Shown here one piece after another: positions 2,886 through 52,911 of a stretch of 64,000 nucleotides of DNA (position 1 is its first letter; every line of letters begins with the position of its first letter). A model generated the notes under the pieces. That model searched no databases. It was not told the DNA's origin and saw nothing but the letters and a program-made list of their open reading frames with translations. The stretch covers positions 384,001 through 448,000 of the forward strand of contig CBDBCF010000002.1 of assembly GCA_965202985.1 (NCBI GenBank), written 5' to 3'. Source of the DNA: Longimicrobiales bacterium (lineage in GTDB: Bacteria; Gemmatimonadota; Gemmatimonadetes; Longimicrobiales; Gaopeijiaceae). The translations under genes and the position numbers were made by a program.

Positions 2886-3588
2886 GCTCCCGGACGAAGA
2901 AGCGCAGCTTGCGCCGCCTGTTCGAGCGGCCGGGCTGCACCGTTCGTACGCCGGGGTGGGCGGACCGGACCTCCACGTGCTGCGGGGAGTCGACCTTGTC
3001 GTGTCGCGGGCGGAGGCGGTCGCGATCGTCGGCGCGAGCGGGTCCGGCAAGTCCACCCTTCTCCACCTGCTTGGCGCTCTGGACCGGCCCACCGCGGGAT
3101 CGACGGCGATCGGAGGGACGGACACCGGCAAGCTGCGGGACGAGGAGGCGGCCGAGCTTCGCAACCGACGGGTCGGCTTCGTGTTCCAGTTTCACCACCT
3201 GCTGCGGGAGTTCACGGCCCTGGAGAACGTCATGATGCCCGCTCTGATCGCGGGACGGAACGAGCGCGACGCGCGGGGAGGCGCGACCACGCTCCTGCGC
3301 CAAGCGGGTCTCGAGGCGCGGCTGGACCACAAGCCGGACCAGCTGTCGGGAGGCGAGCAGCAACGGGTCGCCGTGGCGCGGGCGCTGGTGAACCAGCCCC
3401 TTGTGGTCCTGGCCGACGAGCCCACGGGCAACTTGGACCCGCGAACCAGCGAGGGCGTGCAGGACGCCCTGTTCGCGCTGCGGGAGCGTCACGGGGTTGC
3501 GCTGGTCGTGGCGACGCACAACCGTGAACTGGCGTCTCGGGCCGAAAGGGTCATGGGGCTTGAAGAGGGGGTGCTCGAGGATGCCTGA
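2878..3588 (+). CDS. lolD: Lipoprotein-releasing ABC transporter ATPase
   Basis: [21 protein letters not shown] (LolD motif), [18 protein letters not shown]. Confidence 0.95.
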
Positions 3589-4072
3589 GCCGGGCAGGGT
3601 CTGCGACGGCGAGAACTGCGAAAAGACGGCCGTTGTGCACGTCAAGCAGATCGTCGGCGGCGAGGAGTCGGACCATCACTACTGCCGAGCCTGCGCCCAG
3701 AAGAAGGGAATCGACCCCAAGGGCGGGGGAGATGTCGCGGCGTTGCTGGCCCAGCTGGGAGAGGCGGCCGCCCCGCCGGAACCGTGCTCGTTCTGCGGGC
3801 TGACCTGGAAGAAGTTCCGGCGTCGCGGGCGGCTGGGCTGCCCCGAGTGCTACGCGGCCTTCGAGCCCAACCTGCGCAGAGTGCTCCAGCGCGTGCACGG
3901 GGCCGCGCAGCACGCCGGCAAGGTGTACCTGCCTCCCGATCCTGCCGGCGCGGACGTGGATCGGCGCATCGGTTCGCTCCGGCGACGCCTTCAGCGGGCG
4001 GTGGAGGCGGAGGACTTCGAGAGGGCGGCCCAGCTGCGGGACCGCATCCTGGAGATGGAGCCCGCCGAGTAG
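3581..4072 (+). CDS. mcsA: Protein-arginine kinase activator (CXXC motifs + UVR domain)
   Basis: CRAC, CSFC, GRLGCPECYAAF, HAGKVY, C-terminal EDFERAAQLRDRI. Lies upstream of mcsB-clpC. ATG at 3581 follows a GAGG motif. Confidence 0.92.
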   Translation: MPEPGRVCDGENCEKTAVVHVKQIVGGEESDHHYCRACAQKKGIDPKGGGDVAALLAQLGEAAAPPEPCSFCGLTWKKFRRRGRLGCPECYAAFEPNLRRVLQRVHGAAQHAGKVYLPPDPAGADVDRRIGSLRRRLQRAVEAEDFERAAQLRDRILEMEPAE

Positions 4073-4078
4073 CCTTTC

Positions 4079-38059: not shown

Positions 38060-39144
38060 CCGGCGAGGCGGGCGGAAGCGCTCGGTTCGACTTTGCCGGA
38101 GCGCGGCGCCGGATTCGGCCGTTGGCATGGAAGACGCCGGTCGTGCCGCTCGCGACGGAAGCAACGCCGGGCGAAGCCGTCTTCCTCAAGTTGGAATCCC
38201 TTCAGCGCTCGGGGTCGTTCAAGATGCGCGGGGCCGCGAACCGGCTGACCAAGTTGCTGACCGATTCCGGTCGGCCGTCGGCGGGAGCGGCACGGGTCAA
38301 CGGTGCGGGGCAGGTTACCGGCTCCGGCTCGGAGGCGTCGAGCGGTGCGCCTGGGGGCGTCGTGGCGGTGTCGTCGGGGAACCACGGTCGGGCCGTGGCG
38401 GAAGCCGGACGGCGGCTGGGGGTGCCGGTCACGGTGTGCGTTCCCGAGTGGACCGACCCGTCCAAGCTGCGGGCCATACGGGGCGCAGGCGCGCGGGCTG
38501 TGGTGGCGGGGCCGTCGTACGACCATGCCGAGCGGGAAGCGGCCCGCCTGGAGGCCGAAGAAGGGCTGACGATGGTGCACCCCTTTGACGAGCCGGACGT
38601 GATCGAAGGGCAGGGGACGCTGGGTTTGGAGATTGCGGAGCAGGTTCCCGGCGTGCAAGAGGTGATCGTGCCGCTGTCGGGCGGGGGACTGGTGGCGGGG
38701 GTGGCGTTGGCGTTGCGATCGCATGCGCCGGGCGTTCGCGTCGTCGCGGTTTCCGCCGAGCGGGCGGCGGTCATGCACCGGAGCTTGTTGGCGGGCCGGC
38801 CCGTCGAGGTCCCGGACGAAGAGACGCTTGCGTCGGCCTTGTCCGGCGGCATCGGGCTGGACAACCGGTTCACCTTCGAGATCGTGCGGAACGCGACCTC
38901 CGAACACGTAATCGTTTCGGAGGAGGCGGTGCGTGCCGCGGTCGCCCGCGCCTTTTGCGAACTGCGGCTGGTCGTGGAAGGGGGCGGGGCCGTGGGATTG
39001 GCGGCGCTGTGGTCGGGCGCCTATCGGCCTCGCGGCACGGCCGTGGTCGTCGTTTCGGGCGGCAACATCGACCCGCCCGCGCTGGCCCACGTCCTCGCTA
39101 TCGAAGCCGAGCCACCAGCACCCGGAGGGCGCCTGTCCCGCTGA
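38056..39144 (+). CDS. PLP-dependent threonine/serine dehydratase family, EutB-like
   Basis: LKLESLQRSGSFKMRGA, SSGNHG, PLSGGGL, SGGIGLDNRFTF, SGGNID. Start uncertain. Confidence 0.85.
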   Translation: MTGEAGGSARFDFAGARRRIRPLAWKTPVVPLATEATPGEAVFLKLESLQRSGSFKMRGAANRLTKLLTDSGRPSAGAARVNGAGQVTGSGSEASSGAPGGVVAVSSGNHGRAVAEAGRRLGVPVTVCVPEWTDPSKLRAIRGAGARAVVAGPSYDHAEREAARLEAEEGLTMVHPFDEPDVIEGQGTLGLEIAEQVPGVQEVIVPLSGGGLVAGVALALRSHAPGVRVVAVSAERAAVMHRSLLAGRPVEVPDEETLASALSGGIGLDNRFTFEIVRNATSEHVIVSEEAVRAAVARAFCELRLVVEGGGAVGLAALWSGAYRPRGTAVVVVSGGNIDPPALAHVLAIEAEPPAPGGRLSR

Positions 39145-41668
39145 CCGTCACTTCGACTTCGATGCCGTGGCCAGAACCGTCGGACTCGAAGTCGAAGAAC
39201 GCAATCCCGGCGGGCGCAAGCTCCTGTTCGTGCACCGCGTTCTGGAACGCCGAGGGCGACGGGCCGGTCACGGGCCAGGGATAGAGGCCGTCGGGCCGTG
39301 CTGCGGAGCTGCGATGGTAGAGATCGTAGGTCGCGGACCGAAAGTCGTACGTTCGGAAGGCGCGGGGTGGTTGGGGCGCACCGGTTCCGCTGAACATCAT
39401 GGCGACGGCGTATTCTTCCAGCAGCACGGCCATGCGTGACCCGACGACCTGCTCGATCCCCCGCGTGCCTGCAGGCGTAAGCGAGTCGTTCAGCTCGGCG
39501 AAGATGCGGGCCTCGGCCTTCTCCGCCGCTCCTCCGTAGGCGTCGCCCAGGAACCGGTGGAAGTGCCAAGAGGTGCCGTAGTACAGGTGGTGGTCGCCGG
39601 GGTTGGTGGTCAACGAGTTCGGTCCGCCGGCGTAGGACCGCAACATCCGGTCCAAGCGCAACAGCACGCCGTAGTTTTCGGGCGAGGCGATGGAGCCGTC
39701 CCGCGGCGGATAGGAGTCGCGAGTGAACGTCGCTCCTACCGCCACGCCGCCCGTGGCCTCGATCGCCTTCCGCGACGAGATCTCGGCAGCGATCTCGGCC
39801 CCTCCTTCCTCGATCCACGAAGGATGGAAGCTGCCGCCCCACCACCGCTTGTACAGGGAACTCACGTGCTTGACCTCGTGCACCATGGTCGGCAGCGCCT
39901 GGTAGCCTCCGGCGGGCGCGCTCAGGGCCTGGAACATGCCGCTGTGGAAGTACACGAGCTCCATTTCGTTGGACCACGGGCAGTTGCTCCGGGTGGTCAT
40001 GTCCCCCGCCCACACGAACGCGGCACTCCCGTCTTCCACGGCGGGCGACACGACCACGTTCACCCGCCCGTTGTCGTCCACGTCCGACACGCCGCCGAAG
40101 TACTCCGCGATCGTCTCGGCCCCGTAGGCGTCGTAGTAGTCCAGCACTTGCTGAGTCGCGGCCGTCTCCACCGGTTCGCTCGCGCGTTGGACCGAGTCCT
40201 GGTAGATCGCCAAGTGGGCGTTGTAGCCCAGCAGCAAGGCGGGTTCCGGTTCCGGGGCGGGGTACTGGCACGCTTCGCTGGCGCGCTGGGTGTCGTACGG
40301 GCGAATCGAGATGCGGCCCGGCGGGGCGGTCTGCTGTGCCAGGGTGCCGCTGGGGCGTGTGCGGTGCCCGCCAAGGTCGGGCAGCAGGGCGTCCTTTCCA
40401 AGGCGCTGGTAGAGTTCCCGGGTTTGGGCGAGCAGCCGTCCGTGAAGGCGGGAAGTTGCGTCGGCGCGCTCGGCGGCTTCGGCCAAGCCCGGCGGAAGTT
40501 GAACCGCGACCCTCTGCGACTCGCCCGCGGCCGTCGGTCGGAGCGACGAGCGCCCCCCGGCCCGGGCGTCCGCACCGGCGTCGGGCGCCTCGTCGCCGTG
40601 CTCGCGAACGGTCACCACGACCGGGACGAAGGTCAGGTTCGTGGAGAAACCGGAGCGGACCACCGCCACCCGGTAGAGGCTTCCGGCGTCGTCGGCCGGC
40701 AAGAAGGGGGGACAGCCGTCGGCGCCGACCGGACCGTCCGATGCCGTGGCGCCCGGTTCCATGCGCAGCGCCGGGCCGCACACGAGCAGGTGGACTTCCC
40801 GGCTCGACCGGGCGCCCGCCGAGTCGCGAGCGCTGACGGTGAAGGCGGTCGCGCCCTCCTCGACGGCTTCGCCCGACACGACCCCGTGCGCCTCCAGGAC
40901 CAGTCCGCGGGGAAGGGAACCACCGGACACGGACCACTCCACCGGTCCCTGGGCGTGCCTCGCCTCCAGCGTTTCGCGGTACGGCACGTCGACCCGGGCG
41001 CGGGGAAGCCGGGAGGTGGCGACCACAAGCTCGGCCGTGGCGGTGGCGACGAACTCTGCTTGGAGGTCACCGGAGGCCGCGTGGAGCCGGTTGACGCCCG
41101 GTGCTTCTCCCAGCGTCCAGCGCGTGAAGGCCTCGCCTTCGGAGTTGGTGCGGGCCTGCTCAGCCGAAACCGTGCCGCCGCCGGCCGCGACGCGGAACGT
41201 CACCGGGGCGTTTGGTACCGGCGCGCCGCTTGCGTCTGCGACCCGAACCCTGGGGTCTTCGGGAAGGACCGACAGGACCGCGGCGGACAGAGAGTCGCCG
41301 GCCACCTTTCGCATGTCGGCGGGGCGAAGCACGACGGCCAGGGAGGCCGTGCCCGACACCGCTTGGTGCGTCGCCCGGATCACGGCCGTCCCCGGGCCGG
41401 CGACGGTCGCCAGCCCCGTTGGCGACACGGTGGCAACCTCCGGCCTGGCCGACGACCACGCGACCTCCGCGCCTAGGATCGTCGCGCCCTGGGGGTCCTG
41501 CACATGAGCGGAGAACTGCACCGTGGTCCCGACGGTCTCGGCGGTGGCGCTGGCGGGCGTCACGACCACTCGCGACGGGACGGGCGGGGCCGCGTCGCCG
41601 CAGGCGGTCACGGCCAGCGCAACGGTTGCGGCGGCCCAGCCTAGGGAGCGGGGACCGGTTCGGGTCAT
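39098..41668 (-). CDS. Lipoprotein with Ig-like domains and C-terminal zinc metallopeptidase domain
   Basis: Lipobox VTAC, Big_2/Big_1/He_PIG-like segments (WSVSGGSLPRGLVL), HEVKH...WIEEGGAE. Confidence 0.8.
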   Translation of the reverse strand: MTRTGPRSLGWAAATVALAVTACGDAAPPVPSRVVVTPASATAETVGTTVQFSAHVQDPQGATILGAEVAWSSARPEVATVSPTGLATVAGPGTAVIRATHQAVSGTASLAVVLRPADMRKVAGDSLSAAVLSVLPEDPRVRVADASGAPVPNAPVTFRVAAGGGTVSAEQARTNSEGEAFTRWTLGEAPGVNRLHAASGDLQAEFVATATAELVVATSRLPRARVDVPYRETLEARHAQGPVEWSVSGGSLPRGLVLEAHGVVSGEAVEEGATAFTVSARDSAGARSSREVHLLVCGPALRMEPGATASDGPVGADGCPPFLPADDAGSLYRVAVVRSGFSTNLTFVPVVVTVREHGDEAPDAGADARAGGRSSLRPTAAGESQRVAVQLPPGLAEAAERADATSRLHGRLLAQTRELYQRLGKDALLPDLGGHRTRPSGTLAQQTAPPGRISIRPYDTQRASEACQYPAPEPEPALLLGYNAHLAIYQDSVQRASEPVETAATQQVLDYYDAYGAETIAEYFGGVSDVDDNGRVNVVVSPAVEDGSAAFVWAGDMTTRSNCPWSNEMELVYFHSGMFQALSAPAGGYQALPTMVHEVKHVSSLYKRWWGGSFHPSWIEEGGAEIAAEISSRKAIEATGGVAVGATFTRDSYPPRDGSIASPENYGVLLRLDRMLRSYAGGPNSLTTNPGDHHLYYGTSWHFHRFLGDAYGGAAEKAEARIFAELNDSLTPAGTRGIEQVVGSRMAVLLEEYAVAMMFSGTGAPQPPRAFRTYDFRSATYDLYHRSSAARPDGLYPWPVTGPSPSAFQNAVHEQELAPAGIAFFDFESDGSGHGIEVEVTVSGTGALRVLVARLR

Positions 41669-41677
41669 GGAACGGCT

Positions 41678-43525
41678 TTAGTAGGCGAGAGCATAGGCCT
41701 CTCTCCGGGGATCGGCAGCGGCCACCAGCGTCCCGTTCTCGTGATCCACCACGATCATCTGGGCGCCGCCGAAGGTCGCGGTCCAGCCGTGCACCACGCG
41801 AACTTCGTGGCCTAGCGCCGCCAAGGCGTTCAGCACGTCTTGGGAAATGCGGTCCTCCACGTCCACCACCGTGCCGGGGTAGCTGCGGAACCTAGGTGCC
41901 TCCAACGCGGCCTGGGGCGTCATGCCGAAGAGCGCGCCGTTGTTCATGATCTGCATGAGCGACTGGACTTGGCTGTCGCCGCCGGGCGTGCCCAAGGTGA
42001 ACGCCAGGGCGCCGTCGGGCGTGGTGGCCAGGAGCGGCGTCAGGGTATGGTAGGGCCGCTTGCCGGGGGCGACCTGGTTGGGATGCCCGGCCTCCAAAGT
42101 GTGGAGCGAGCCCCGGTTGTGGAGCAGCACCCCGGTCTCCGGCTCCAAGAGGCCGGACCCGAAGCCGTGGAACAGGCTCTGAATCCACGACACCGCGTTG
42201 CCCCACTGGTCGACGGCGGTCAGGTAGACGGTGTCGCCCGCGTCGCGTGGCCCGAGGGCCGGATCGCCGGCGTCGCTGGCGTTGCCTGCGTGGGGCGACG
42301 AGTCCGTGTTGCCGGTGTCGAGGGCGTCGGGCGCGTCGGCCCCGCCCGGAGCGGGAATCCCCGGGGCCACGGCCTCCGCTGCCGCCCTTGGATCGAACCG
42401 TTCGGCTCGCGCCGCCAAGTAATCCGGGTCCAGCAGCTCTTCGATCGGGATGTCCGCGAAGTCGGGGTCGGCGGCCCACTGGTCTCGGTCCGCGAACGCC
42501 AGCTTCTTGAGCTCGATCAGCGTGTGCAGGTACGCCGCCGTGTTGTGTCCCATCTCCTGCAACGGATGCCGGGCGGCCATCTGCGCCAGGGCGAGCTGGG
42601 CGATCCCCTGCGTGTTGGGCGGCAGCACGTGAAGACGCGCGCCCAGGTACTCGGCCGACAGCGGCTCGACCCACGTGGACGTGTGGGCCGCGAAGTCGTC
42701 CAGCACCAGGGCGCCGCCGACGGAGTCCAGGAAGGTCGTCAGGCGCTCCGCGACCGCGCCCCGATAGAACGCCTCCTTGCCCCCGCGAGCGATGGAGCGC
42801 AGCGTGGCCGCCAGCGCCGGGTTGCGGAGCAGGGAACCCGCGGGAGGTGCGCCGCCTTCCGGCAGATAGAGGGCCCGTCCCGGTGCGTTGAGGGCCGACC
42901 CCTGCGCCTCGAAGTCGGACGCAAGCCGCGTGGACACGGGAAACCCGTCTTCCGCGTAGTGGACGGCGGGGGCCAGGAGCTGCTCGAAGGGCAGGGACCC
43001 GAAGCGGGCGTGGGCGTCTTCCCAAGCGGCCGGCGCGCCGGGCACGGAAACGGACAGCGGACCGGTCTCGGGAACGGCTTCGTGCCCCAGTTCCCGGAAG
43101 AACTCCGGCGACGCCTTGGTGCCGGCCCGCCCGCTCCCGTTCAGCGCGTGGACCGCTCCCGTCCGGGCTTCGTAGAAGAGGCCGAAGGCGTCTCCCCCCA
43201 CGCCGTTCATGTGGGGGCGGACCACCGCCAGCACACCGGCCATCGCCACCACCGCGTCCGTCGCGTTGCCGCCGCGTCGCAGCACGTCCAGGCCCGCCGC
43301 CGCCGCCAACGGATGGCCCGCTGAAACGGCGCCCCGGACGCCGCGCACCTCCGGCCGGTTGGTCGAGGGCAGCAGGGCGGCCGTCCCGGCCACGCCGGCT
43401 TGGTCGCGGGCCGTCGTCCCGTCGTCGCCGCCGGAGCCCGATCCCGAACAAGCGGCAAGGGCAAGGGCCGCGGCGAACTGAAATGCCGCAAGCAGCGGTC
43501 CGATCTCCGCCTTGGTTCGTCTCAT
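41678..43525 (-). CDS. ggt: Gamma-glutamyltransferase family lipoprotein
   Basis: GGNATDA, GVGGDAF, PPNTQG, DTVYLTAVD (nucleophile Thr), PGKRPYHT, GTPGG, DPRR. Lipobox LAAC after ATG 43525. Confidence 0.93.
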   Translation of the reverse strand: MRRTKAEIGPLLAAFQFAAALALAACSGSGSGGDDGTTARDQAGVAGTAALLPSTNRPEVRGVRGAVSAGHPLAAAAGLDVLRRGGNATDAVVAMAGVLAVVRPHMNGVGGDAFGLFYEARTGAVHALNGSGRAGTKASPEFFRELGHEAVPETGPLSVSVPGAPAAWEDAHARFGSLPFEQLLAPAVHYAEDGFPVSTRLASDFEAQGSALNAPGRALYLPEGGAPPAGSLLRNPALAATLRSIARGGKEAFYRGAVAERLTTFLDSVGGALVLDDFAAHTSTWVEPLSAEYLGARLHVLPPNTQGIAQLALAQMAARHPLQEMGHNTAAYLHTLIELKKLAFADRDQWAADPDFADIPIEELLDPDYLAARAERFDPRAAAEAVAPGIPAPGGADAPDALDTGNTDSSPHAGNASDAGDPALGPRDAGDTVYLTAVDQWGNAVSWIQSLFHGFGSGLLEPETGVLLHNRGSLHTLEAGHPNQVAPGKRPYHTLTPLLATTPDGALAFTLGTPGGDSQVQSLMQIMNNGALFGMTPQAALEAPRFRSYPGTVVDVEDRISQDVLNALAALGHEVRVVHGWTATFGGAQMIVVDHENGTLVAAADPRREAYALAY

Positions 43526-43740
43526 CGACTTCGCCTTTCCACGCAGGTTACGCGGTAGCCCTCCACCCACTCCTCGCCCAGGGCGTTCGTCACCGGCTTG
43601 GCCGTCCCGCAGGTCGGTCATGTCTAATCTCGCGGAAAAGTTGGCCTCGGCCACGAGGGTGTCGCGGGGCCGAATCGCCTTCCATAGGCGGGAAAACCGT
43701 TGCGGGTTCAGATAGCCGCCGCTGGCCACGGCCTTGATGT
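43522..43740 (-). pseudogene. Decayed 3' remnant of the beta-propeller gene at 47166-48354
   Basis: Aligns with 47166-47420 (shared tagccctccacccactcctcgcccaggg, gcaggtcggtcat, aagttggcctcggccacga), with indels. Confidence 0.85.
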
Positions 43741-43762
43741 CCAGCTTTGAACGGGGCCGAGG

Positions 43763-45079
43763 CTATGTGGTTCGAACCCGTGGGGTCCCGACATTGGCGT
43801 TCCAAGCGTCAGCCACGGCCTCCATCAGTGTGGCCAGTCTTGGCCAGTCTGTAGTGTGCACTGCGGCCCGGAAGCCCTCGTTCTCCCGCGTCACCATGCC
43901 GCAACAGAAGCGCCACGGTCCCGCGTCGGGGTCTGGAATCGACCACTCTCTCCGAGGCGGGGGCGGGTAAGCGTGCCCAACCAGCATGTCATACCTGTGG
44001 AAGTCGCTCACCACCACTTCCTGCCGAGCAATTACGTCCCCCAACACGACGTACTTCTCCGTACTTGGGCGTCTCACGGCCAAGTCGACGTAGGCCCCGC
44101 CGTTGAAGGCTTCAAGGAATTCTCGAATCGGACGTTCCTCCCCATGCCTGATCGAGGTCGTGTCGAGGTCGTCGCTTGGCCTCGACCACACCCAAGGGTC
44201 CCACCATCCCATTTCACCCAAGTACACGGACACCGGAGACTCATATATGTTCCCTAAGAAGCCACGCGCTCCGGCGGCCCGTAGCACGTCGGCCACTTCG
44301 TCGGCGGACTTACAGGCTTCGAGCGTGCTCCACCCCTCTGAGTTAACGAGGCGGAGGCCCCCCTTCCCAGATCTTACCAGTTGAGACACGGTCCGGGCCA
44401 CGGGGGTCCCGACATGGGTGTTCCAAGCATTGGCCACGCCCTCCAACAGCTCGCCCAGTTCGCCCAGTTTTCGCCAGCCGGTGTCGCGCATCGCGGCACG
44501 GAAGCCATCGTTCTCCGGTGCCACTGTTCCGCAATGGAAATCCCATAGGTCACCAGACTCGTCCTTCGGATACTGAACTGGAATCGACCACCCGCTAATG
44601 CTACGTGTCGAGGGCCAACCCGGGTAGGCGTGCCCCACCAGCGTGTTGCCCACCAGCACCTCCTGCCTGGCGGTTACCCTCCCAAGGTGTAGCCACTTTA
44701 CCTCCTTGCTTCGGGAGCGTTTCAGAGCCAGGTCGACGTAAGCCCCGCCGTTGAAGGCTTCGATGAACTCCCGGACCGGACGCGGGGTCTCGCACCAGAT
44801 ATCGACCTTGTCGTCGTGGTCGGATCGGACAAACAACCTCGACCAATCCCAATGGACGTCGGCGGAACCATCCTGCCACCGTCCAATCCCATCCATTAGG
44901 TACACTTCCACAGGGTTTTCTCGGATGCCACGTCCTTCTCGGATGCCACGTGCTCCGACGGCCCGAAGCACATCGGCCACTTGTTCCGCGGATTCGCAGG
45001 CCTCGAGTGTGGACCAGCGACCAAGGACCGTCGTAGACAGGCTGGCAGGCACAGCTCTTGTCTCCTTACTTGCTTCCAT
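43763..45079 (-). CDS. Orphan protein made of two tandem ~190-210 aa repeats
   Basis: WSTLEAC..A..VADVLRA.GARG, EAFNGGAYVDLA, LVGHAYP and AWN..VGTP each occur twice. GGAGG upstream of ATG. Confidence 0.75.
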   Translation of the reverse strand: MEASKETRAVPASLSTTVLGRWSTLEACESAEQVADVLRAVGARGIREGRGIRENPVEVYLMDGIGRWQDGSADVHWDWSRLFVRSDHDDKVDIWCETPRPVREFIEAFNGGAYVDLALKRSRSKEVKWLHLGRVTARQEVLVGNTLVGHAYPGWPSTRSISGWSIPVQYPKDESGDLWDFHCGTVAPENDGFRAAMRDTGWRKLGELGELLEGVANAWNTHVGTPVARTVSQLVRSGKGGLRLVNSEGWSTLEACKSADEVADVLRAAGARGFLGNIYESPVSVYLGEMGWWDPWVWSRPSDDLDTTSIRHGEERPIREFLEAFNGGAYVDLAVRRPSTEKYVVLGDVIARQEVVVSDFHRYDMLVGHAYPPPPRREWSIPDPDAGPWRFCCGMVTRENEGFRAAVHTTDWPRLATLMEAVADAWNANVGTPRVRTT

Positions 45080-45194
45080 CGCCGCTATTCCTCCCGAGCC
45101 CTACCCTAATGGCCCCTGGGCCATCGCCCCCTTGGCTTGGCCCATTCACCGTCTACACAAGTTGCGACCTAATCCCTATGGACGCAACCGAAGG

Positions 45195-45248
45195 TGTCGA
45201 ACGACAACCAAAGTGAGACGGGAGCGACAAGCACGATGAGACCGTCGG
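45195..45248 (+). repeat. TGT-N4 + two 18-bp direct repeats (23-bp period), copy 1; resembles an IS21-family end
   Basis: tgtcgaa-CGACAAcCAaagTGAGAC-gggag-CGACAAgCAcgaTGAGAC-cgtcgg. Confidence 0.6.
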
Positions 45249-45302
45249 AGGCAGCCGTGGGCCGAGGTTGACTGGCATGACTTCGGGGGCTACCATGCGT
45301 TC

Positions 45303-46026
45303 ATGTCCAGCTACCGCAAGCCGTCCGGCCGCCCGGCCAAGCCGGTGAGTCCCGTGGACCAGGAAAAAGACGCATTCGTCGCCACCACGCTTCAGGCCAC
45401 GCGGTGGGCCCGGCGGCACCGGCCGATCCTGACGCTCGGGATCGTCTTGGCGACGGTGATCGTGGCGGGAATCGTGTACTACGTGCGCTACCAGAACACG
45501 CTGAACAGCGGACGGCGCTCCAGTTGGAGGAAATCCAGCAGCGGCTCGACACGGGGGATCAGACAGGGGCGCAGGCCGACTTGGGGCTGTTCTTGGAGTG
45601 CTTCGACGGTACGCCGTCCGCCGACGAGGCTCGGATTGCCGTTGCCCAGATCAGCAACGGGACAGGGGAGCTCGGAGCGACGGCCGCAATCTTGGAGCCG
45701 CTGGCACGGGACATGGGCAGCCCGCTGGGCCCCAGGCCGCGGGCCTTTCTGGCGGTGATCTTCTCGGAGGACGCGGGCAACCTGGAGACGGCGGAGGGGC
45801 TTACCTGCGCCTGGCCGACCATCCCGTTTGGGCTTTCGGGTGAGAGACGCCCTGGCCGCGGCGGCCCGCAGTCGCTGGGAATCGGGCGACGCCGCGGGCG
45901 CCATGGAGCTGTACGACCGGATCTTGAGCCGAATGGACGAGATGCGATCTGAACCGAGGCTTGGCGGAGATGCGGCGGGCCGAAGCGAATGTGATTGCGT
46001 TGTGGACCGCGTCGGAGCTTCCCTAG
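45303..46026 (+). pseudogene. Frameshifted duplicate of the YfgM-like TPR gene at 49729-50448
   Basis: Near-identical start and promoter, 1-nt deletion near 45512, further indels near 45800-45820, homologous through the stop codon. Confidence 0.9.
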
Positions 46027-46036
46027 CCGTAGCGCC

Positions 46037-46957
46037 ATGAAAGGGAAGTTGGGAGGGCAAGCCCCTGACCCCGTCGGAACTGCTCGGCGAATCGTTGCTC
46101 TGGACCAAGCCCGAGAAGCATTGCTTGCATCACAGACTTACTGGCGCGAGAAGGCTGAGGCTGAGAGGGAGAGCGCATGGCGTCGCGACTTCGGGGACAA
46201 GCGACTCTGGGAGTACCAAGCCCAGAGCTATTGTTTTGCCGCTGCCGCGGAGCGCCTGAAGAGCAACATGGAGATGTTCGCCCGCCGCCTCCATCACGAG
46301 ATCCGTGAATTCCTTAATCCATATCTCCGGCGCTTTGGCTCCGACTTCCGGCCCAACGCCGATGATGTCGCAGCAGCCCTCGAAGTCGCGGGTGGCGACC
46401 GGGCCGTGGCCGCCCGACACCTCCGGATTGCTGCCCTTGGAAGTCGAGGGTACCGTGCTAGTCTTGAAGTTAGTGCCGATGTTGTGCTCCACACGAGTCG
46501 CCACGAAGCCTCGGACCCTGCGGAAACACCCTCACGACTCGCCTGGCTATGGAGGCAAGCCCGAAAGGCCTTATTCGAGCTTATAACCGCCTTTCAGGGG
46601 TTCCTGTACATCTTTACCCCAAGATTCGTCAAGAACCCGCTGTACGACTGGGCCCTGCGCCCTCTGCCCCCAAGATTCCGCCGGCTTCGAGGACTCGTCC
46701 AGCTATGGACGCCAAACAACGGGCGTCATTGGCGGTGGTATTTTGTAATATTCCGCCGTCGCAACCCCGACCCAATCGAAACGGCAACTCGGTGGATCAC
46801 CGTCCTGGGTCAAGCCCGAGAAGCCTTGCTCAATGTCGTCACAGGCGCCGATACCAACGAGGCTAGGACGTTAAAGGAAGATCTAGCAGAAGAGCTAGCA
46901 GAAACCATGATGTTGCTCGCTTATCACATCAGTGCCGAATTGGACACGGCCTACTAG
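46037..46957 (+). CDS. Orphan hypothetical protein with internal repeats
   Basis: 306-aa ORF, visibly less GC-rich than core genes. PDP..TA...L.QAREALL occurs twice. Confidence 0.62.
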   Translation: MKGKLGGQAPDPVGTARRIVALDQAREALLASQTYWREKAEAERESAWRRDFGDKRLWEYQAQSYCFAAAAERLKSNMEMFARRLHHEIREFLNPYLRRFGSDFRPNADDVAAALEVAGGDRAVAARHLRIAALGSRGYRASLEVSADVVLHTSRHEASDPAETPSRLAWLWRQARKALFELITAFQGFLYIFTPRFVKNPLYDWALRPLPPRFRRLRGLVQLWTPNNGRHWRWYFVIFRRRNPDPIETATRWITVLGQAREALLNVVTGADTNEARTLKEDLAEELAETMMLLAYHISAELDTAY

Positions 46958-47024
46958 TCGACTACCACGCGACCTCCACGCTTGCGACTGTCACGCCCTG
47001 GGCGTCCTGCACTATGGTCCCGAC

Positions 47025-47078
47025 TGTAGAGCGACAATCAGAATGAGACCCTGGCGACAATCAAGATGAGACTGTCGG
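47025..47078 (+). repeat. TGT-N4 + two 18-bp direct repeats (23-bp period), copy 2
   Basis: tgtagag-CGACAAtCAgaaTGAGAC-cctgg-CGACAAtCAagaTGAGAC-tgtcgg. Confidence 0.6.
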
Positions 47079-47169
47079 GATCGGAACTCAATCCCAAACG
47101 AGCGGCAAGGGCCGGATGCACGGAAGCACCGCAAGCAAGCAGCCCGGTCCTCGCCTCGGTTCGTCTCAT
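47079..47169 (-). pseudogene. Decayed duplicate of the ggt 5' end
   Basis: MRRTEARTG vs ggt MRRTKAEIG. Shared ggttcgtctcatcgacttcgc and agcggcaagggc. Confidence 0.75.
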
Positions 47170-48354
47170 CGACTTCGCTCTTCCACGTCGCAGGTTACCC
47201 GATAGCCCTCCACCCACTCCTCGCCCAGGGTGTTCGTGACAGTCCCAACGGCCCGGTCGTCCCCGCAGGTCGGTCATATCGAAGTCTCGCGGAAAGTTGG
47301 CCTCGGCCACGATGGTGCCCCCGGGGCCGATCGCCTTCCAACGGCGGGAGGGCCGCCGTGGGTCCGGGTAGTCGCCCAGCCACAGCCAACCGTTCTCGGC
47401 CGCCACCAAGCCCTGATAGGGCGGGAGGGTGGCGGGGCGCCCGGCGATCTCGACGGAAGCCTCGACGATGTCGGGTCGCCCGGTCTCTTCGCTCCGGACT
47501 GCCATGATCTCGTCCACGTCGTCGTCCGTCAGAACCGAAGGCTCTGCTCCACGACGAAAGGTCCTCCTGCGCCCTGCGCTGTCCAGGGCCGCCAAGTCCG
47601 GCTTGCCGCCCGTCCCGACGACGACAAACGAGTCCGTGGTCGCCAAGACGCTCGCCAAAGGCAGCAAGGGCCTCACGAACTTGGGGCCGCGGCCAACGTG
47701 AATGTGCGTCCCCGAGGGAATCACGCCGATCTTGCGAACGAACGCACCTTCGTCGTCAAAGAAGAGCAGGGGAAGGTCCGGGCGGAACGCGCCGGGTCGA
47801 AAGCCGTCGAGCGACGTGACCATCCCGCCCACTCCGACGATCCCGCCCGGGCCGGGCAGTGCGCCTCCAACGTATGGTGCGAAGTCCCCTCCGCCGCGCA
47901 GCCGAACCAAGCGACCGACCCACGGCTCGTCGGCCCCGAGCACCGTAACTCGCTGAAGGCCGGAATCGTACACGAACAGCGAGTCGCCCTTGATCCGTGT
48001 CATGTCGGTGGGCCTGACGTACTCGCCCGGTCCCTCGCCTCCGCGAGCCTCGTAGACGGTGTGGCCGTTTCCGTCGAAGTACCTCAGGGCCGGCGGATCC
48101 CTTTCGACGACTGCCACGTAGGCGCCCACCTGGGACACGCCGGCGATCCGAAAGAACGGTTCTCCGCCGGAAGCGATGCCCTCCGGTCCTACGCTGTCCC
48201 AGGCGAACAGCTTCTCGACGTCGCACGACGAATCCTGTGCTGGCCCGTGCTCGTCCTCATGTTCCACGCCGCCACAGGTTGCCAGCAAGCCGCCGATTCC
48301 GCAGATGCACGCGGCCAGCGACGCCCTTCCGAGTACTGGCAATGCAAGGGCCAT
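47166..48354 (-). CDS. 6-bladed beta-propeller-type lipoprotein with an apparent +1 frameshift near its 3' end
   Basis: Lipobox LATC, GGEGPGEY, DSLFVYDSGLQRVTV, GWLWLGDY. The plausible final blade DRAVGTVTNTLGEEWVEGYRV lies in another frame after the C4 run at 47261-47264. Confidence 0.75.
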
Positions 48355-48373
48355 CGGAAAGCCGTGGCCCACC

Positions 48374-49498
48374 CTATCGCGACGACCTGTCTGGACGTGG
48401 TCGCTGTCTACCCTTCTCTCGAATCGCAAGGCTGCTCAGCGTCCATGCGCCGGTCGGCGGAGCATTGGACAACACGACAAGATGGTCGCGAGCGAACAGT
48501 ATCTTGCCCGGCAATGGCACATCTTGCGAAACTTTGGTCAGACTTGACAACGCATAAATGTCGGCTCGATATGACGCCTTTTGGTAGCCAAATTCGCTGG
48601 GATCCAGGTCCCGATGTTCGACGATCAGGAAATTGTTCCCCACAACCCAAAGCGACCTGACCTTCGTAAAGCTCCGAAGAAACAACTGAAATGCTCGTTC
48701 TGCACCGATAAACTCCCCGGCTCTCGGTCTCCTGGGGTGGCGAAAGGACGAAGGTGCTGTCCCAAATTCGGTAACGGAAAGGGTCGACGCGTTGTAGCGA
48801 TGCATCGGGTAGAGCATTGAAGACGCTACATAGAAGTGGTTCGGCGCAACGGCAAGGTGGTGATGGTATCCGGCTGATCCCCAGTACGCTGGAAGCTCGA
48901 GCACGTGTTGTACGTGATGGTGGAAGGCACGCACGATGCTGCCGTCGAGCGAGTACTCGAAGAATGCAGCGCCTGGGGCATGGGTATCGGTCTTCTCAAC
49001 GATTAAAACCGAATCGTGTGCATGAAGTCGTGGCGACCATATCTCTTGATCAAGTGGAAACGAGAAGTCGACGCTGTGATCCGCCATGTTCAGAACGACG
49101 ATCCGAGGTGGAAAATCGGAAACTGCAATGCGGTTGCGGTCCAGAAAGATGGCGTCGTAAGGGGATGCGTAAAGGGGTGCGTCTCTTGTTGCTGCGGGGG
49201 ATGACATGGGAATCGGAGAGCCGGACGAATCAAACAGCAAGACTGCCGGTTGGTCGCGGTCCGTGATCAAGAGGAGGCCGTCGTCCCGTATGTCCAAGTT
49301 GTCCACGGATACCAGTGACGAACTCTCGGTCTGCCGAAGAACGACTTGGCCAACGTCGACGAACTCGAATTCGGCTCGAGCAGGGAGCCCATCTAGTTCG
49401 GTGCAACCCAGAACGCTGGCGATGCCAAGGACATGTGCCACGACGACGCGGCGCCGAGTCGCGACGTGCTTGACAGCTGACTGGCCGAGTCGCCTCAT
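48374..49498 (-). CDS. Beta-propeller-type lipoprotein, hypothetical
   Basis: Lipobox VLGC, DGLLLITDRDQPAVLLFDSSG, EYSLDGSIVRAF. More AT-rich than core genes. Confidence 0.72.
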   Translation of the reverse strand: MRRLGQSAVKHVATRRRVVVAHVLGIASVLGCTELDGLPARAEFEFVDVGQVVLRQTESSSLVSVDNLDIRDDGLLLITDRDQPAVLLFDSSGSPIPMSSPAATRDAPLYASPYDAIFLDRNRIAVSDFPPRIVVLNMADHSVDFSFPLDQEIWSPRLHAHDSVLIVEKTDTHAPGAAFFEYSLDGSIVRAFHHHVQHVLELPAYWGSAGYHHHLAVAPNHFYVASSMLYPMHRYNASTLSVTEFGTAPSSFRHPRRPRAGEFIGAERAFQLFLRSFTKVRSLWVVGNNFLIVEHRDLDPSEFGYQKASYRADIYALSSLTKVSQDVPLPGKILFARDHLVVLSNAPPTGAWTLSSLAIREKGRQRPRPDRSSR

Positions 49499-49693
49499 CG
49501 GCGTTTCTGCACGACGGCTAGGATTGCGTGAGATGGACCACTCTGGAGTGATCGTCCGCGGTGGACAAGTTCAACATAGGAGGCTGTCAACGGAACGCAA
49601 GATAATTCCGGTACGGGATATGCCGAGTTGGGGAGACCGGCCCCCGAGAAGGAGAGCTCCCTCGGTACTGGGTGCCGCCCCAAGGGCCCCCCG

Positions 49694-49722
49694 TTGACCG
49701 GTGCCCTCTCGGGGGTTACCAT
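49694..49722 (+). promoter_or_regulatory. Sigma70-type promoter of a probable leaderless mRNA
   Basis: TTGACC-17 nt-TACCAT, 6 nt before ATG 49729. The duplicate at 45268-45296 (TTGACT-17-TACCAT) has the same geometry. Confidence 0.7.
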
Positions 49723-49728
49723 TCGTTC

Positions 49729-50448
49729 ATGTCCAGCTACCGCAAGCCGTCCGGTCGCCCGGCCAAGCCGGCGAGTCCCGTGGACCAGGAAGACGCGTTC
49801 GTCGCCACCACGCTCCAAGCCACGCAGTGGGCCCAGCGGAACCGGCCGATCCTGACGCTGGGGATCGTCTTGGCGGCGGTGATCGCGGCGGGAATCGTCT
49901 ACTACGTGCGCTACCAGAACACGCTGAACAGCGGGGCGGCGCTCCAGTTGGAGGAGATCCAGCAGCGGCTCGACACGGGGGACCAGACGGGGGCACAGGC
50001 CGACTTGGAGCTGTTCTTGGAGCGCTTCGACGGCACGCCGTCCGCCGACGAGGCCCGGATTGCCCTTGCCCAGATCAGCGCCGAGGCGGGGGAGCGCGAA
50101 GCGGCAGCCGAGATACTGGAGCCGCTGGCACGGGACATGGGCAGCCCGCTGGGCCCCCAGGCCGCGGGCCTTCTGGCGGCGATCTCGGAGGACACGGGCA
50201 ACCTGGAGACTGCGGAGGCGCTGTACCTGCGCCTGGCCGACCAGTCCCGCTTAGGCTTTCAGGTCAGAGACGCCCTGGCCGCGGCGGCCCGCATTCGCTG
50301 GGAATCGGGCGACGCCGCGGGCGCTATGGAGCTGTACGACCGGCTCCTGGCCCGAATGGACGAGACCGATCCGGACCGAGGCTTGGTGGAGATGCGTCGG
50401 GCCGAGGCGGAGGTGGTCGCGCTGCGGACGGTGCCGGGGGCTCCCTAA
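49729..50448 (+). CDS. YfgM-like single-pass TPR protein (TPR_21 type)
   Basis: EDAFV...WAQRNR, one TM (ILTLGIVLAAVIAAGIVYYV), then TPR helices (ERFDGTPSADEARIALA). Confidence 0.82.
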   Translation: MSSYRKPSGRPAKPASPVDQEDAFVATTLQATQWAQRNRPILTLGIVLAAVIAAGIVYYVRYQNTLNSGAALQLEEIQQRLDTGDQTGAQADLELFLERFDGTPSADEARIALAQISAEAGEREAAAEILEPLARDMGSPLGPQAAGLLAAISEDTGNLETAEALYLRLADQSRLGFQVRDALAAAARIRWESGDAAGAMELYDRLLARMDETDPDRGLVEMRRAEAEVVALRTVPGAP

Positions 50449-50467
50449 GGCGGACCCCACATCCACC

Positions 50468-51007
50468 GTGGATGCCGCAGACCGGCGGATCGCCGACTCC
50501 GCAACGACGATGTGCCGATGCACCGTCGAACTCACCGCCTGGATCGACCGCATCAAGTATCCGGTTGATGTGCGCGCGGTCGAGGAGACCGTGGAAGACC
50601 AGGCGTCGCAGGCCCTCGCCAGCGTGCTTGAAGGCTTCGAGATCGAGATCGATCGATGCGACTGCACGTTGATCACCGACCGGGATCGTCTAAGCCGCCT
50701 CTTTCGTGAACACCACGCGGCTCGGGTCGAGGCCGCGAAGACTTGGCACCGCCGTGCTCAAGGTCGCGCCGCTTCGAAGGCGGGTCGCGATTGGCCCGGC
50801 GTGTCCGCCGACACACGTCGAGCGCTCCGGGCCGAGGCCGAGAACGAACCCGAGAATCCCAAGACCGAAGGAGCGGACGCGCCTGGGGTCGACGCCGGTG
50901 ACCGACCTGGAGCCCGGGAAGGAGACCCGCGACCCGGAGCCCGGACGCTGGCGAAGATCCGGTGTGTCGTCGGCCGAACTCCGTGCCGAGGCCGAAAACG
51001 CCGTTGA
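50468..51007 (+). CDS. Orphan hypothetical protein next to dif (possibly frameshifted)
   Basis: Protein-like N-terminal half. GVS..LRAEAEN is repeated in an overlapping frame (50706-51083). Confidence 0.45.
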   Translation: MDAADRRIADSATTMCRCTVELTAWIDRIKYPVDVRAVEETVEDQASQALASVLEGFEIEIDRCDCTLITDRDRLSRLFREHHAARVEAAKTWHRRAQGRAASKAGRDWPGVSADTRRALRAEAENEPENPKTEGADAPGVDAGDRPGAREGDPRPGARTLAKIRCVVGRTPCRGRKRR

Positions 51008-51058
51008 TCTGGCGCTCGGCGGCGGCCAAGGTAATCCCTGGGCGGAGCAACGCCTTGA

Positions 51059-51086
51059 AGTTCGTATAATATGTATTATGTAAAGT
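51059..51086 (+). other. dif: dif site (XerC/XerD recombination site)
   Basis: AGTTCGTATAA-TATGTA-TTATGTAAAGT, an 11-6-11 layout with TAA/TTA inner symmetry and a XerD-type arm. AT-rich island at the point where gene orientation converges. Confidence 0.9.
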
Positions 51087-51193
51087 TGAAGGAACAGGAA
51101 TCGGGCCAGTCAGTCCACGGTTGAGTCTGGGCCCGCTGCCTCCCCTTCCTGAACGGGAAACGGCTTCCGTGGAGCGTGGCCCGTACCGCTCGG

Positions 51194-52291
51194 TCAGCGG
51201 AACAGGTCTTCGATGCGCGCGGCGAGGTCCGTGCTCATGGGCGCACCGCTGAGGTTGGCCGTCACGGCCACGATCGCGCCCGTGTCCCGGTTCACGGTGA
51301 GCACGGTTCGCCCGCCGACGGAGCCTCCGGTGTGGGAGACGATCCGCTCGCCTCGGCTGTTCACGCTCGACCGCCAGCCGATCCCGTAGCCCGTCTCGTC
51401 TCCGTTGCGCAAGCGCTGGGGCTCGAAGAGCACCTCCAGCGTGGCGGCCGACAGGAAGTCGGCGTCCAGATGGGCGGCGGCGAAGCGCAGCAGGTCTTCC
51501 GGCGTGGACAGGAACCCTCCACCCGCCCACTTGTAGCTGTTGTCCACATGGGGCGCGTTGAGGACCTGGCCTCCTTCCCCTTCCACGTAGAACCGAGTTC
51601 GGTGCGGGATGATGCTGTCCGTATGGCCGGCCACGGTATGCCGCATTTCGAGCGGGTCGAAGACGACGCGGTCCATGTACGTCAAGAAGGGCTCGCCGCT
51701 GGCCCCTTCCACGACGGCGCTGATCAGGTTCCAGCCGTAGCTGGAGTAGACGTACGCCGTGCCGGGTTCGTGTAGAAGCGAGTCGTCCCGAAAGATCGCG
51801 AGTCCCGAGAGCACGGTGGGATACCGCGCGGACGAGAAGTTCTCCATGCCCCGGTAGTGACGAACGCCGGCCAGGTGACCCGCCAGCTGCCGGGTCGTGA
51901 CCGGCCAACGCTTCTCCGGAAACGAGGGCACGTAGCGCTGCACGGGCGCGTCCAGGTCCAGCCGGCCGGCGTCCAGCAGCACGCCGAGCGCCGCGGCGGT
52001 CAGCGGCTTGGAGACGCTCCCGACGCGGAACTTGGTCAGTTGCGTCACCGACACGCCGTGGGTCAAGTCCGCGGAGCCGAAGCCTTCCGACCACAACACG
52101 CGGTCCCCCCTGCCCACGGCCGCCGACAGGCCGGGTATGGAATGCGCCTTCATGACCGAATCGAGCAGAACGCGGGCGGCGGCTTCGGGCCCGACCTGCG
52201 GCTCCCCCTGCGGGGTCGGTCGGCAGGCAAGCGGCAACAGCGAAGAGGTGGTCGCGACGCCTGCGAAGGCCAATCTGACGATGATGTTCAT
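51194..52291 (-). CDS. Serine hydrolase, beta-lactamase class C family lipoprotein
   Basis: FRVGSVSK (SxxK), YVYSSYG, SHTGG, lipobox PLAC, AGGAG RBS. Confidence 0.9.
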   Translation of the reverse strand: MNIIVRLAFAGVATTSSLLPLACRPTPQGEPQVGPEAAARVLLDSVMKAHSIPGLSAAVGRGDRVLWSEGFGSADLTHGVSVTQLTKFRVGSVSKPLTAAALGVLLDAGRLDLDAPVQRYVPSFPEKRWPVTTRQLAGHLAGVRHYRGMENFSSARYPTVLSGLAIFRDDSLLHEPGTAYVYSSYGWNLISAVVEGASGEPFLTYMDRVVFDPLEMRHTVAGHTDSIIPHRTRFYVEGEGGQVLNAPHVDNSYKWAGGGFLSTPEDLLRFAAAHLDADFLSAATLEVLFEPQRLRNGDETGYGIGWRSSVNSRGERIVSHTGGSVGGRTVLTVNRDTGAIVAVTANLSGAPMSTDLAARIEDLFR

Positions 52292-52338
52292 GGGGCTCCT
52301 TTGGGCAGTGGGGGGGCGAACCGCATTGGGTGCGTGCA

Positions 52339-52911
52339 TTAGAACGCCAAGAAGTTCTCCACGATGCGGCGGCCGCCCTCGGTGAACCACGACTCGGGGT
52401 GGAACTGAACGCCCCACACGGGATGCTCCGCGTGGCGCATGGCCTGAATCTCGCCTTCGTCGGCCGGGTCCGCGCTCCACGCGATCGGCTCGAGGCCGGG
52501 CGGCAGGTCGGGAGCAGCCACCAGGGAATGGTAGCGCGCAACCCGCATGGGCGACGAGACCCCGTCGAAGAGCGCGTCGCCCGCGTGGACCACCGAGGCC
52601 GTCTTGCCGTGGACGGCCCGGGCGGCGCGGATCGTGCGGCCGCCGTAAGCCTCGCCGATCGACTGGTGCCCCAGACAGACGCCTAAGGTCGGCACGCGAG
52701 GCCCCAACAGTCGAATCGCCTCCACGCTGATCCCGGCGTCCGCCGGAGTGCACGGTCCGGGAGACACGACGAGCCGTTCGATTCCGGCGTTGAGCAGTTC
52801 GTCGGGCGTCGCGGCGTCGTTGCGGAAGACCTGGGGATCGCCCCCCAGCGCTCCCAGCATCTGGACCAGGTTCCAGGTGAACGAGTCGTAGTTGTCGATG
52901 ACGGCAAGCAT
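52339..52911 (-). CDS. Anthranilate/aminodeoxychorismate synthase component II (TrpG/PabA)
   Basis: IDNYDSFTWNL, SPGPC, GVCLGHQ, RYHSL, GVQFHPES. Confidence 0.95.
   Translation of the reverse strand: MLAVIDNYDSFTWNLVQMLGALGGDPQVFRNDAATPDELLNAGIERLVVSPGPCTPADAGISVEAIRLLGPRVPTLGVCLGHQSIGEAYGGRTIRAARAVHGKTASVVHAGDALFDGVSSPMRVARYHSLVAAPDLPPGLEPIAWSADPADEGEIQAMRHAEHPVWGVQFHPESWFTEGGRRIVENFLAF

Follow-up and report, generated by a model that had tools for sequence, protein, structure and literature searches.

The window analysed here is a 64-kb stretch of a 3.86-Mb genome (labelled G000) assembled in two contigs, C1 and C2; it corresponds to C2:384001-448000, and positions given without a contig name are those of the window. 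The locus considered lies in a region where parts of an Ig-domain gene, GGT and a TPR gene are present in more than one copy. In G001, which belongs to the same genus, and in the relatives G002 and G003, each genome has one run of the Ig-domain gene, GGT, a gap of 0.3-1.3 kb, the TPR gene and the next gene, and this single-copy arrangement makes the duplication of the Ig-domain gene, GGT and TPR gene specific to G000. On C2 the cumulative GC skew reaches its maximum at 427077 (window position 43077), and the skew switch at the locus is probably the replication terminus. An earlier note made on this DNA had placed the locus near dif; a terminus position is plausible by GC skew, but a scan of the window with an E. 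coli-type dif pattern, which may not fit this phylum, gave 0 matches with 3 mismatches allowed.

Open reading frames of low GC content are interspersed with the duplicated DNA. ORFan Z (43763..45079, minus strand) encodes 438 aa with an internal two-fold repeat and has 61.7% GC, an orphan ORF of 320 aa (45995..46957, plus strand) has 59.0% GC over 46041-46953 and lies between a TPR pseudogene and the Ig-domain gene fragment X', both described below, and ORF V' (48374-49498) has 56.4% GC, compared with about 68-72% in the conserved genes and 68.5-69.1% in the two contigs. Neither ORFan Z nor the 320-aa orphan has a Pfam or NCBIfam match. Homologues of ORFan Z were found in 0 of 60 relatives, and the 320-aa orphan gave one weak match (E 9e-5) among the same 60. 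A structured RNA has no backing, as a search of 44000-48000 against Rfam at E values up to 1 returned no match.

Within this locus lie four copies of an 18-bp motif. The pattern CGACAANCANNNTGAGAC, scanned across the 64-kb window with up to 2 mismatches allowed, gave four exact matches, all on the plus strand, at 45202, 45225, 47032 and 47055, where 0.43 are expected by chance; at least four were obtained in 0 of 100 shuffles. The copies form two pairs, both with a period of 23 bp, and in both a TGT (45195-45197 and 47025-47027) begins 7 nt ahead of the first repeat. The second repeat is followed on its 3' side by CGTCGG in the first pair and by TGTCGG in the second. A looser form of the pattern with 3 mismatches gave 48 matches in the window against 48.4 expected, and the equality of this count with chance means that no degenerate copies of the motif are hidden there. 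The window scan and the sequence itself agree with what the earlier note had described, namely four 18-bp copies in two pairs of one orientation, with the TGT offset and a following YGTCGG. The same note had seen no transposase and no inverted partner end, and this holds as well: all motif copies are on the plus strand, tblastn with IstA and IstB gave no match in C2:384001-448000, and the window contains no inverted repeat of at least 40 bp. Its placement of the pairs at borders between orphan and core DNA was only partly correct. The right, or inner, side of each pair is indeed joined to duplicated DNA, but the 66-71 bp directly to the left of the second pair (46954/46959-47024) belong to the duplicated core too, as part of a fragmentary Ig-domain gene, so that the true border between orphan and core DNA at the second pair lies about 70 bp to the left of its TGT.

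A scan of the whole genome and its relatives, suggested in the earlier note, found the motif well beyond this locus. With at most 1 mismatch, G000 contains 17 copies at 11 sites, 11 forward and 6 reverse, a result with which a fuzzy scan agrees, and a reversed control pattern gave 0 copies. When the flanks of the copies were aligned, homology began at the TGT and extended only inward, and two types of end could be distinguished. The left type consists of TGTCGAG, the repeat, GGTAG, the repeat and TGTCGGAGGCGGCCGTGATC; the right type consists of TGTAGAG, the repeat, CCTGG, the repeat and CGTCGGGATCGTGTGACGGGAACGATGG. Across 60 relatives and G000, more than 3 matches were found only in G000 (17) and in the same-genus genome G001 (23). 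In 21 further genomes there were 1-3 single-mismatch matches each, always on separate contigs where there were several, and counts for the control pattern were alike. The genome scans of G002 and G003 gave zero copies.

The copies outside the window reveal the element to which the motif belongs. On C1 of G000 a left-type end at 516971 is followed by an open IstA frame that runs from C1:517099 to about 518721-518798 (NF033546, 203.7 bits, cutoff 160), and 3' of this frame is an IstB fragment truncated by part of another IS21-type element, distinct from the first. A right-type end at C1:1384154 lies inverted just past the 3' end of a frameshifted istB (PF01695). In G001 (locus L033) a right-type and a left-type end are inverted relative to each other and 2866 bp apart, and the element between them encodes an IstA that scores 171 bits with NF033546, together with a full-length IstB that matches NF038214 at 273 bits (cutoff 200) and covers profile positions 1-231 of 232. 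A second, shorter G001 copy (L034) measures 2416 bp from tip to tip. Whether copies of the motif flank istA and istB had been left by the earlier note as a point to check; in G001 they do, with an inverted partner end. Each element end is composed of TGT, 4 nt, the 18-bp repeat, 5 nt and the second 18-bp repeat. No target-site duplication was found at the two G001 copies, one of which is nested in another IS.

The G001 IstA shares 53% identity, across 93% of its length, with IS21-family IstA proteins of Sinorhizobium plasmids. On plasmid pSF25509a of S. fredii CCBAU 25509 (NZ_CP029453.1) the record annotates istA at 90665-92149 and istB at 89749-90684. The left end of this element reads TGCAGCG CGACAACCAAGATGAGAC GAAG CGTCAATCAAGATGAGAC and the right end reads TGTAGAG CGACAATCTGGCTGAGAT CAGCG CGACAATCTGGATGAGAT, and an 8-bp direct duplication, GCCATCAC, flanks it. 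Target-site duplications of IS21-family elements are 4-8 bp long. The duplication on pSF25509a fixes the tip of the element at the TG, 7 nt ahead of the first repeat, as in the window.

In the available text of Spinola-Amilibia et al. (2023, PMC10122671), the terminal repeats of IS21 are described as two direct repeats at each end, L1/L2 and R1/R2, the reactive end is the terminal CA, integration by IstA requires both complete repeats, and the assays with IS5376 used complete 55-bp ends. The pairs in the window fit this anatomy, with 7 + 18 + 5 + 18 = 48 bp followed by a short conserved inner stretch. Judged by sequence, the motif corresponds to the direct repeats, L1/L2 and R1/R2, within the terminal inverted repeats of an IS21-family element, and the pairs are predicted IstA-binding sites by analogy with IS5376, in which two complete repeats per end are needed. 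The element is a new, as yet unnamed member of the IS21 family, present here as relics. Of the two explanations offered in the earlier note, solo IS21 ends is the one upheld, since the same repeats bound istA-istB in G001 and on the Sinorhizobium plasmid and degraded copies are found elsewhere in G000.

The first pair in the window is a solo left end (IRL, 45195..45259, plus strand), with its tip TGT at 45195-45197, L1 at 45202-45219, L2 at 45225-45242 and, further in, the conserved stretch CGTCGGAGGCAGCCGTG at 45243-45259. It aligns with the full element from position 1, firmly as far as about position 65, and in BLAST the match continues to position 77 (45271) at 83% identity. The second pair is a solo right end (IRR, 47025..47083, plus strand), with its tip TGT at 47025-47027, R1 at 47032-47049, R2 at 47055-47072 and, further in, the stretch TGTCGGGATCG at 47073-47083. 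Over 57 nt it shares 96.5% identity with the IRR at C1:1384096-1384152, and it matches positions 2866-2808 of the G001 element at 88%. Both relics lie in the same orientation, with the tip to the left and the absent interior to the right, and no IS homology was found outside the tips of either. Both keep the tip and both repeats, the match to the IS ends after 59-65 bp and paralogous host DNA comes next, and at each inner junction the IS and host homologies overlap by a few bases.

The host DNA next to each relic could be assigned by self-comparison of 39000-52600, of which only the blastn part was used because the tblastx output was too noisy. Joined to the broken inner end of the IRL is an extra, frameshifted copy of the TPR_21-domain gene (45260..46025, plus strand). 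BLAST aligns 45283-46025 with 49709-50447 at 89% identity and the alignment reaches back to about 45259; the inner junction of the left end lies within 45259-45268, in the region upstream of the TPR gene. Just downstream of this junction, at 45268-45296, is the promoter-like site of the extra copy, TTGACT-17-TACCAT. The extra copy has ORFs in two frames and no Pfam match; the intact copy (49672-50448) matches PF09976 at 5e-14. On the other side of the IRL, facing its tip, lies ORFan Z.

The IRR is set between two further remnants of duplicated genes. To its left lies X' (46954..47024, plus strand), a fragment of the second copy of the Ig-domain gene that belongs to repeat family D7 and corresponds to 41445-41538 with an 18-bp gap, which falls between two CTGCAC repeats. 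BLAST aligns 46959-47012 with 41450-41503 at 83% identity. The last 12 nt of X', TATGGTCCCGAC at 47013-47024, were matched by eye with CGTGGTCCCGAC at 41527-41538, a stretch that MAFFT placed differently. Because X' abuts the tip of the IRR, it marks the putative insertion site of the IS. To the right lies the 5' stump of a second GGT copy with its upstream DNA (47084..47376, minus strand), with a start codon at 47169-47167 and about 28 codons left; BLAST aligns 47082-47376 with 43432-43720 at 77.6% identity. The stump is joined to position 59 of the IRR at 47082/47083, at about codon 30, with an overlap of 2 nt between the two homologies (CG, 47082-47083).

The assembly at both sites is supported independently by contigs from public sequencing runs. 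Contigs of run X5, which is possibly the source sample, span both with 0 differences (43000-45327 in record 25, 45704-49753 in record 28). A 328-nt contig from run X1, which comes from another study and carries a marine metagenome label, covers 45166-45493 with 0 differences (record 3). Other public-run contigs match from 47025 and diverge after 47071-47072 into IS-body sequence, or differ outside the tip, as is expected of further copies of this IS end. Runs X1-X3 leave parts of the stretch without contig cover, gaps to which no weight is given, and run X4 contains a small share of the sampled words.

The arrangement of tips and broken ends bears directly on the other explanation in the earlier note, that the motif serves an undescribed cassette-insertion system near dif as its attachment or recombination site. 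The region does lie at the cumulative GC-skew maximum, and low-GC orphan genes adjoin both pairs. However, the tips face orphan DNA and the broken inner ends face core DNA, which means that the element does not bound the orphan DNA, which lies outside it; only one side of each orphan segment carries a motif pair, and the second pair interrupts a host gene fragment. G002 and G003 differ in content at this locus and yet have 0 copies of the motif, the dif scan, although a weak test, gave no dif-like site, and the motif is fully accounted for as an IS21 end repeat. We consider a cassette-insertion site highly improbable, and the earlier claim is not sustained. The orphan genes lie outside the IS tips and so are not bounded by the IS. 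The IS does not account for the origin of ORFan Z or of the 320-aa orphan, and this origin is all that a cassette system near dif would have left to explain. The other orphan borders (43720/43721, about 46025-46040 and 46954) showed no repeats or IS fragments in BLAST searches against the genome.

The position of the first pair, which ends 26 bp upstream of TTGACT-17-TACCAT, would also suit a transcription-factor operator made of direct repeats and controlling the downstream TPR gene. The intact TPR copy, however, has the same promoter-like sequence without the motif, and the gene that follows the first pair is the frameshifted copy. The second pair lies within remnants of coding sequence. Among the matches listed for G001 there is none at this locus, and G002 and G003 are without any. 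An operator is the least credible of the readings considered, and it was ruled out by the distribution of the motif.

The preferred identification, relics of an IS21-family element, also accords with the state of this IS elsewhere. By tblastn, G000 contains one open IstA frame, and IstB of this IS type was found only truncated or frameshifted. Relics of 28 bp to near-full length are common, at 11 sites in G000 and at the 11 relic loci examined in G001. The G001 relics measure 28, 41, 42, 61, 69, 92 and 102 bp, another is about 107-135 bp long and the remaining three are larger; those of G000 range from 59 bp to about 2.4 kb. Two G000 left ends are short of one 23-bp unit, and three G000 relics stop only 11-22 bp inside the second repeat, which is taken as one end of a continuous spread of lengths. 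A piling up of lengths at one value, as a specific cutting mechanism would produce, was looked for and not seen; the lengths are continuous. The search finds only relics that have kept the motif, so a specific cutting mechanism may still be involved, and the large number of short relics is by itself no proof of a special mechanism. At another locus of this genome, a left end at C1:2347404 and a right end at C1:2343070 have the same orientation and lie a few kb apart, an arrangement that we treat as chance.

What might have left two solo ends of one orientation in the duplicated DNA? The proposed history would begin at the terminus with a tandem duplication specific to G000, whose unit took in part of the Ig-domain gene, GGT and the TPR gene. 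One IS copy would then have entered the Ig-domain gene in its second copy, at the position corresponding to 41538, and a further one would have inserted upstream of the first TPR copy. Finally, deletions by illegitimate recombination would have extended from just inside each end into the flanking DNA; at the right-end site, one deletion would have removed about 2.8 kb of the IS and, of the host DNA, about 1.9 kb. Attributing both same-orientation ends to a single inversion or a single IS was also considered and rejected, as this would leave the IS body in place. It is very likely that the motif copies are IS21 terminal repeats and that the pairs are solo ends, one left and one right, probably the leftovers of deletion in two separate IS copies. 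The overall picture is one of usual IS decay and of an ordinary genome scar.

The relics are now probably inert, because the search of G000 gave an open IstA frame but no intact IstB of this type and IstB is reported, in the available text on IS5376, as essential in vitro (PMC10122671). Solo ends could still function in trans through the open IstA frame, as hot spots for recombination or rearrangement in the terminus region or as components of a non-autonomous element, and so would have helped to bring in the orphan genes, a scenario that we regard as unlikely. The tip and both repeats, which the relics keep, form the minimal active substrate in IS5376 as far as the text drawn upon describes it (PMC10122671), the IstA ORF in G000 is uninterrupted, low-GC ORFans lie beside the relics, and the same-orientation layout of a left and a right end recurs at the second locus. 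But the two ends point the same way and so do not form a transposable pair, the breakpoints are at the inner side and not at the tip where the transposase cuts, and the IRL relic has diverged, with only about 83% identity to the reference end; the lack of an intact IstB counts against this scenario as well. It is very unlikely, too, that complete solo ends, when bound by IstA, promote illegitimate joining on their inner side, which would produce the recurrent same-orientation layout and help to fix foreign low-GC genes at the terminus. Leftovers of decay are what we take the two ends to be, which settles an odd-looking signal as ordinary: it is the repeat at the ends of an IS21-family element, and a rhizobial relative shares the sequence of this repeat. 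It gives no pointer to a new mobile-element mechanism. The two relics would nevertheless serve to date and order the local events in a rearranged terminus, from duplication to IS insertion to deletion, and CGACAAYCA-N3-TGAGAC, in 23-bp pairs after a TGT, can be used as an annotation marker for relics of this IS subgroup.

The element has the features of IS21 and IS5376 as the available account of them gives these: a 5'-TG tip, which corresponds to a terminal CA on the complementary strand, a pair of direct repeats at each end within about 50-55 bp, and istA followed by istB between the ends, in an element of 2.9 kb. Its repeat sequence probably differs from that of IS5376. Unlike complete IS21 or IS5376, the window has ends alone, in the same orientation and each joined to host DNA. 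A further likeness is to the element on pSF25509a, which has the same 18-bp repeat (CGACAACCAAGATGAGAC) with a period of 22-23 bp and a right end that opens with the same TGTAGAG CGACAATC; its left tip is TGCAGCG, where that of the element described here is TGTCGAG. In contrast to the relics in the window, the pSF25509a element comes from another phylum, is complete and is flanked by an 8-bp target duplication. The locus is reminiscent of IMEX inserted at dif and of integron attC cassettes only in its near-terminus position and neighbouring orphan genes, since it has no dif-like or attC-like site and no recombinase, and its motif belongs to the end of a DDE transposon. The likeness is rather to the relics of deletional IS decay, with truncated ends of many lengths across the genome and broken transposase genes. 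Compared with ordinary IS relics there is nothing unusual about the two in the window, which happen to sit at the breakpoints of a local duplication.

The two relics of the IS21-family element that carries paired 18-bp direct repeats within both terminal inverted repeats, a solo left end at window 45195-45259 and a solo right end at 47025-47083, are embedded in a rearranged tandem duplication (window 41445-50448) that takes in a portion of the Ig-domain gene along with GGT and the TPR_21 gene. The same unit is single-copy in the three same-genus genomes compared (G001, G002, and G003), and judging from these sequences the duplication is specific to this genome. One TPR copy carries a frameshift, and of the second GGT copy only about 28 codons are left.

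An open frame at 47038-48429 (-) runs without a stop from an upstream gene on through the GGT stump (within 47084-47376, (-)), and its stop codon falls within the first of the two repeats in the right end of the IS (47032-47049). Over its C-terminal part, this frame shares 48% identity with the translation of 43499-43720, a stretch immediately upstream of the intact GGT start and slightly overlapping it. The 438 aa ORFan Z (43763-45079, (-), 61.7% GC) contains a two-fold internal repeat (43782-44134 versus 44403-44782, 65%); it matched no family in Pfam or NCBIfam, and a homologue was found in none of the 60 relatives searched.

Along contig C2, the cumulative GC skew reaches its maximum at C2:427077, about 43077 in the window, and the relic locus is therefore likely to be at the replication terminus; the cumulative minimum of contig C1 is at position 1598477. 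A search of the window with an E. coli-type dif pattern, allowing up to 3 mismatches, located no such site, and that pattern may not be the one used by the host phylum.

A second locus with a left and a right end in the same orientation is found at C1:2343004-2347411, where a solo left end of 70 bp lies 4.3 kb from an incomplete right end, the two enclosing a 1157-aa ORF with DEAD/ResIII helicase domains. The genome also contains a distinct IS21-type element (C1:1950000-1954000, C1:519070-519900, and C2:821900-822533), likewise degraded, whose IstB starts ...LADLKMPGALEALA... and whose ends are without the 18-bp motif. The two element types are repeatedly nested together. At C2:823400-828400, paralogous genes form a tandem array (period ~1.14 kb, identity ~89%); all three ORFs scanned match the 6-bladed beta-propeller family DUF5128, and the array adjoins a motif-bearing right end that is itself inserted in istB of the second element.

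The IS21 element of S. fredii pSF25509a (1441-4073 of the plasmid segment compared) has kept terminal-repeat sequence in common with the motif-bearing element described here, although their IstA proteins are only 53% identical. Conservation of the end repeats despite such IstA divergence suggests an IS21 subgroup whose members share an end motif.
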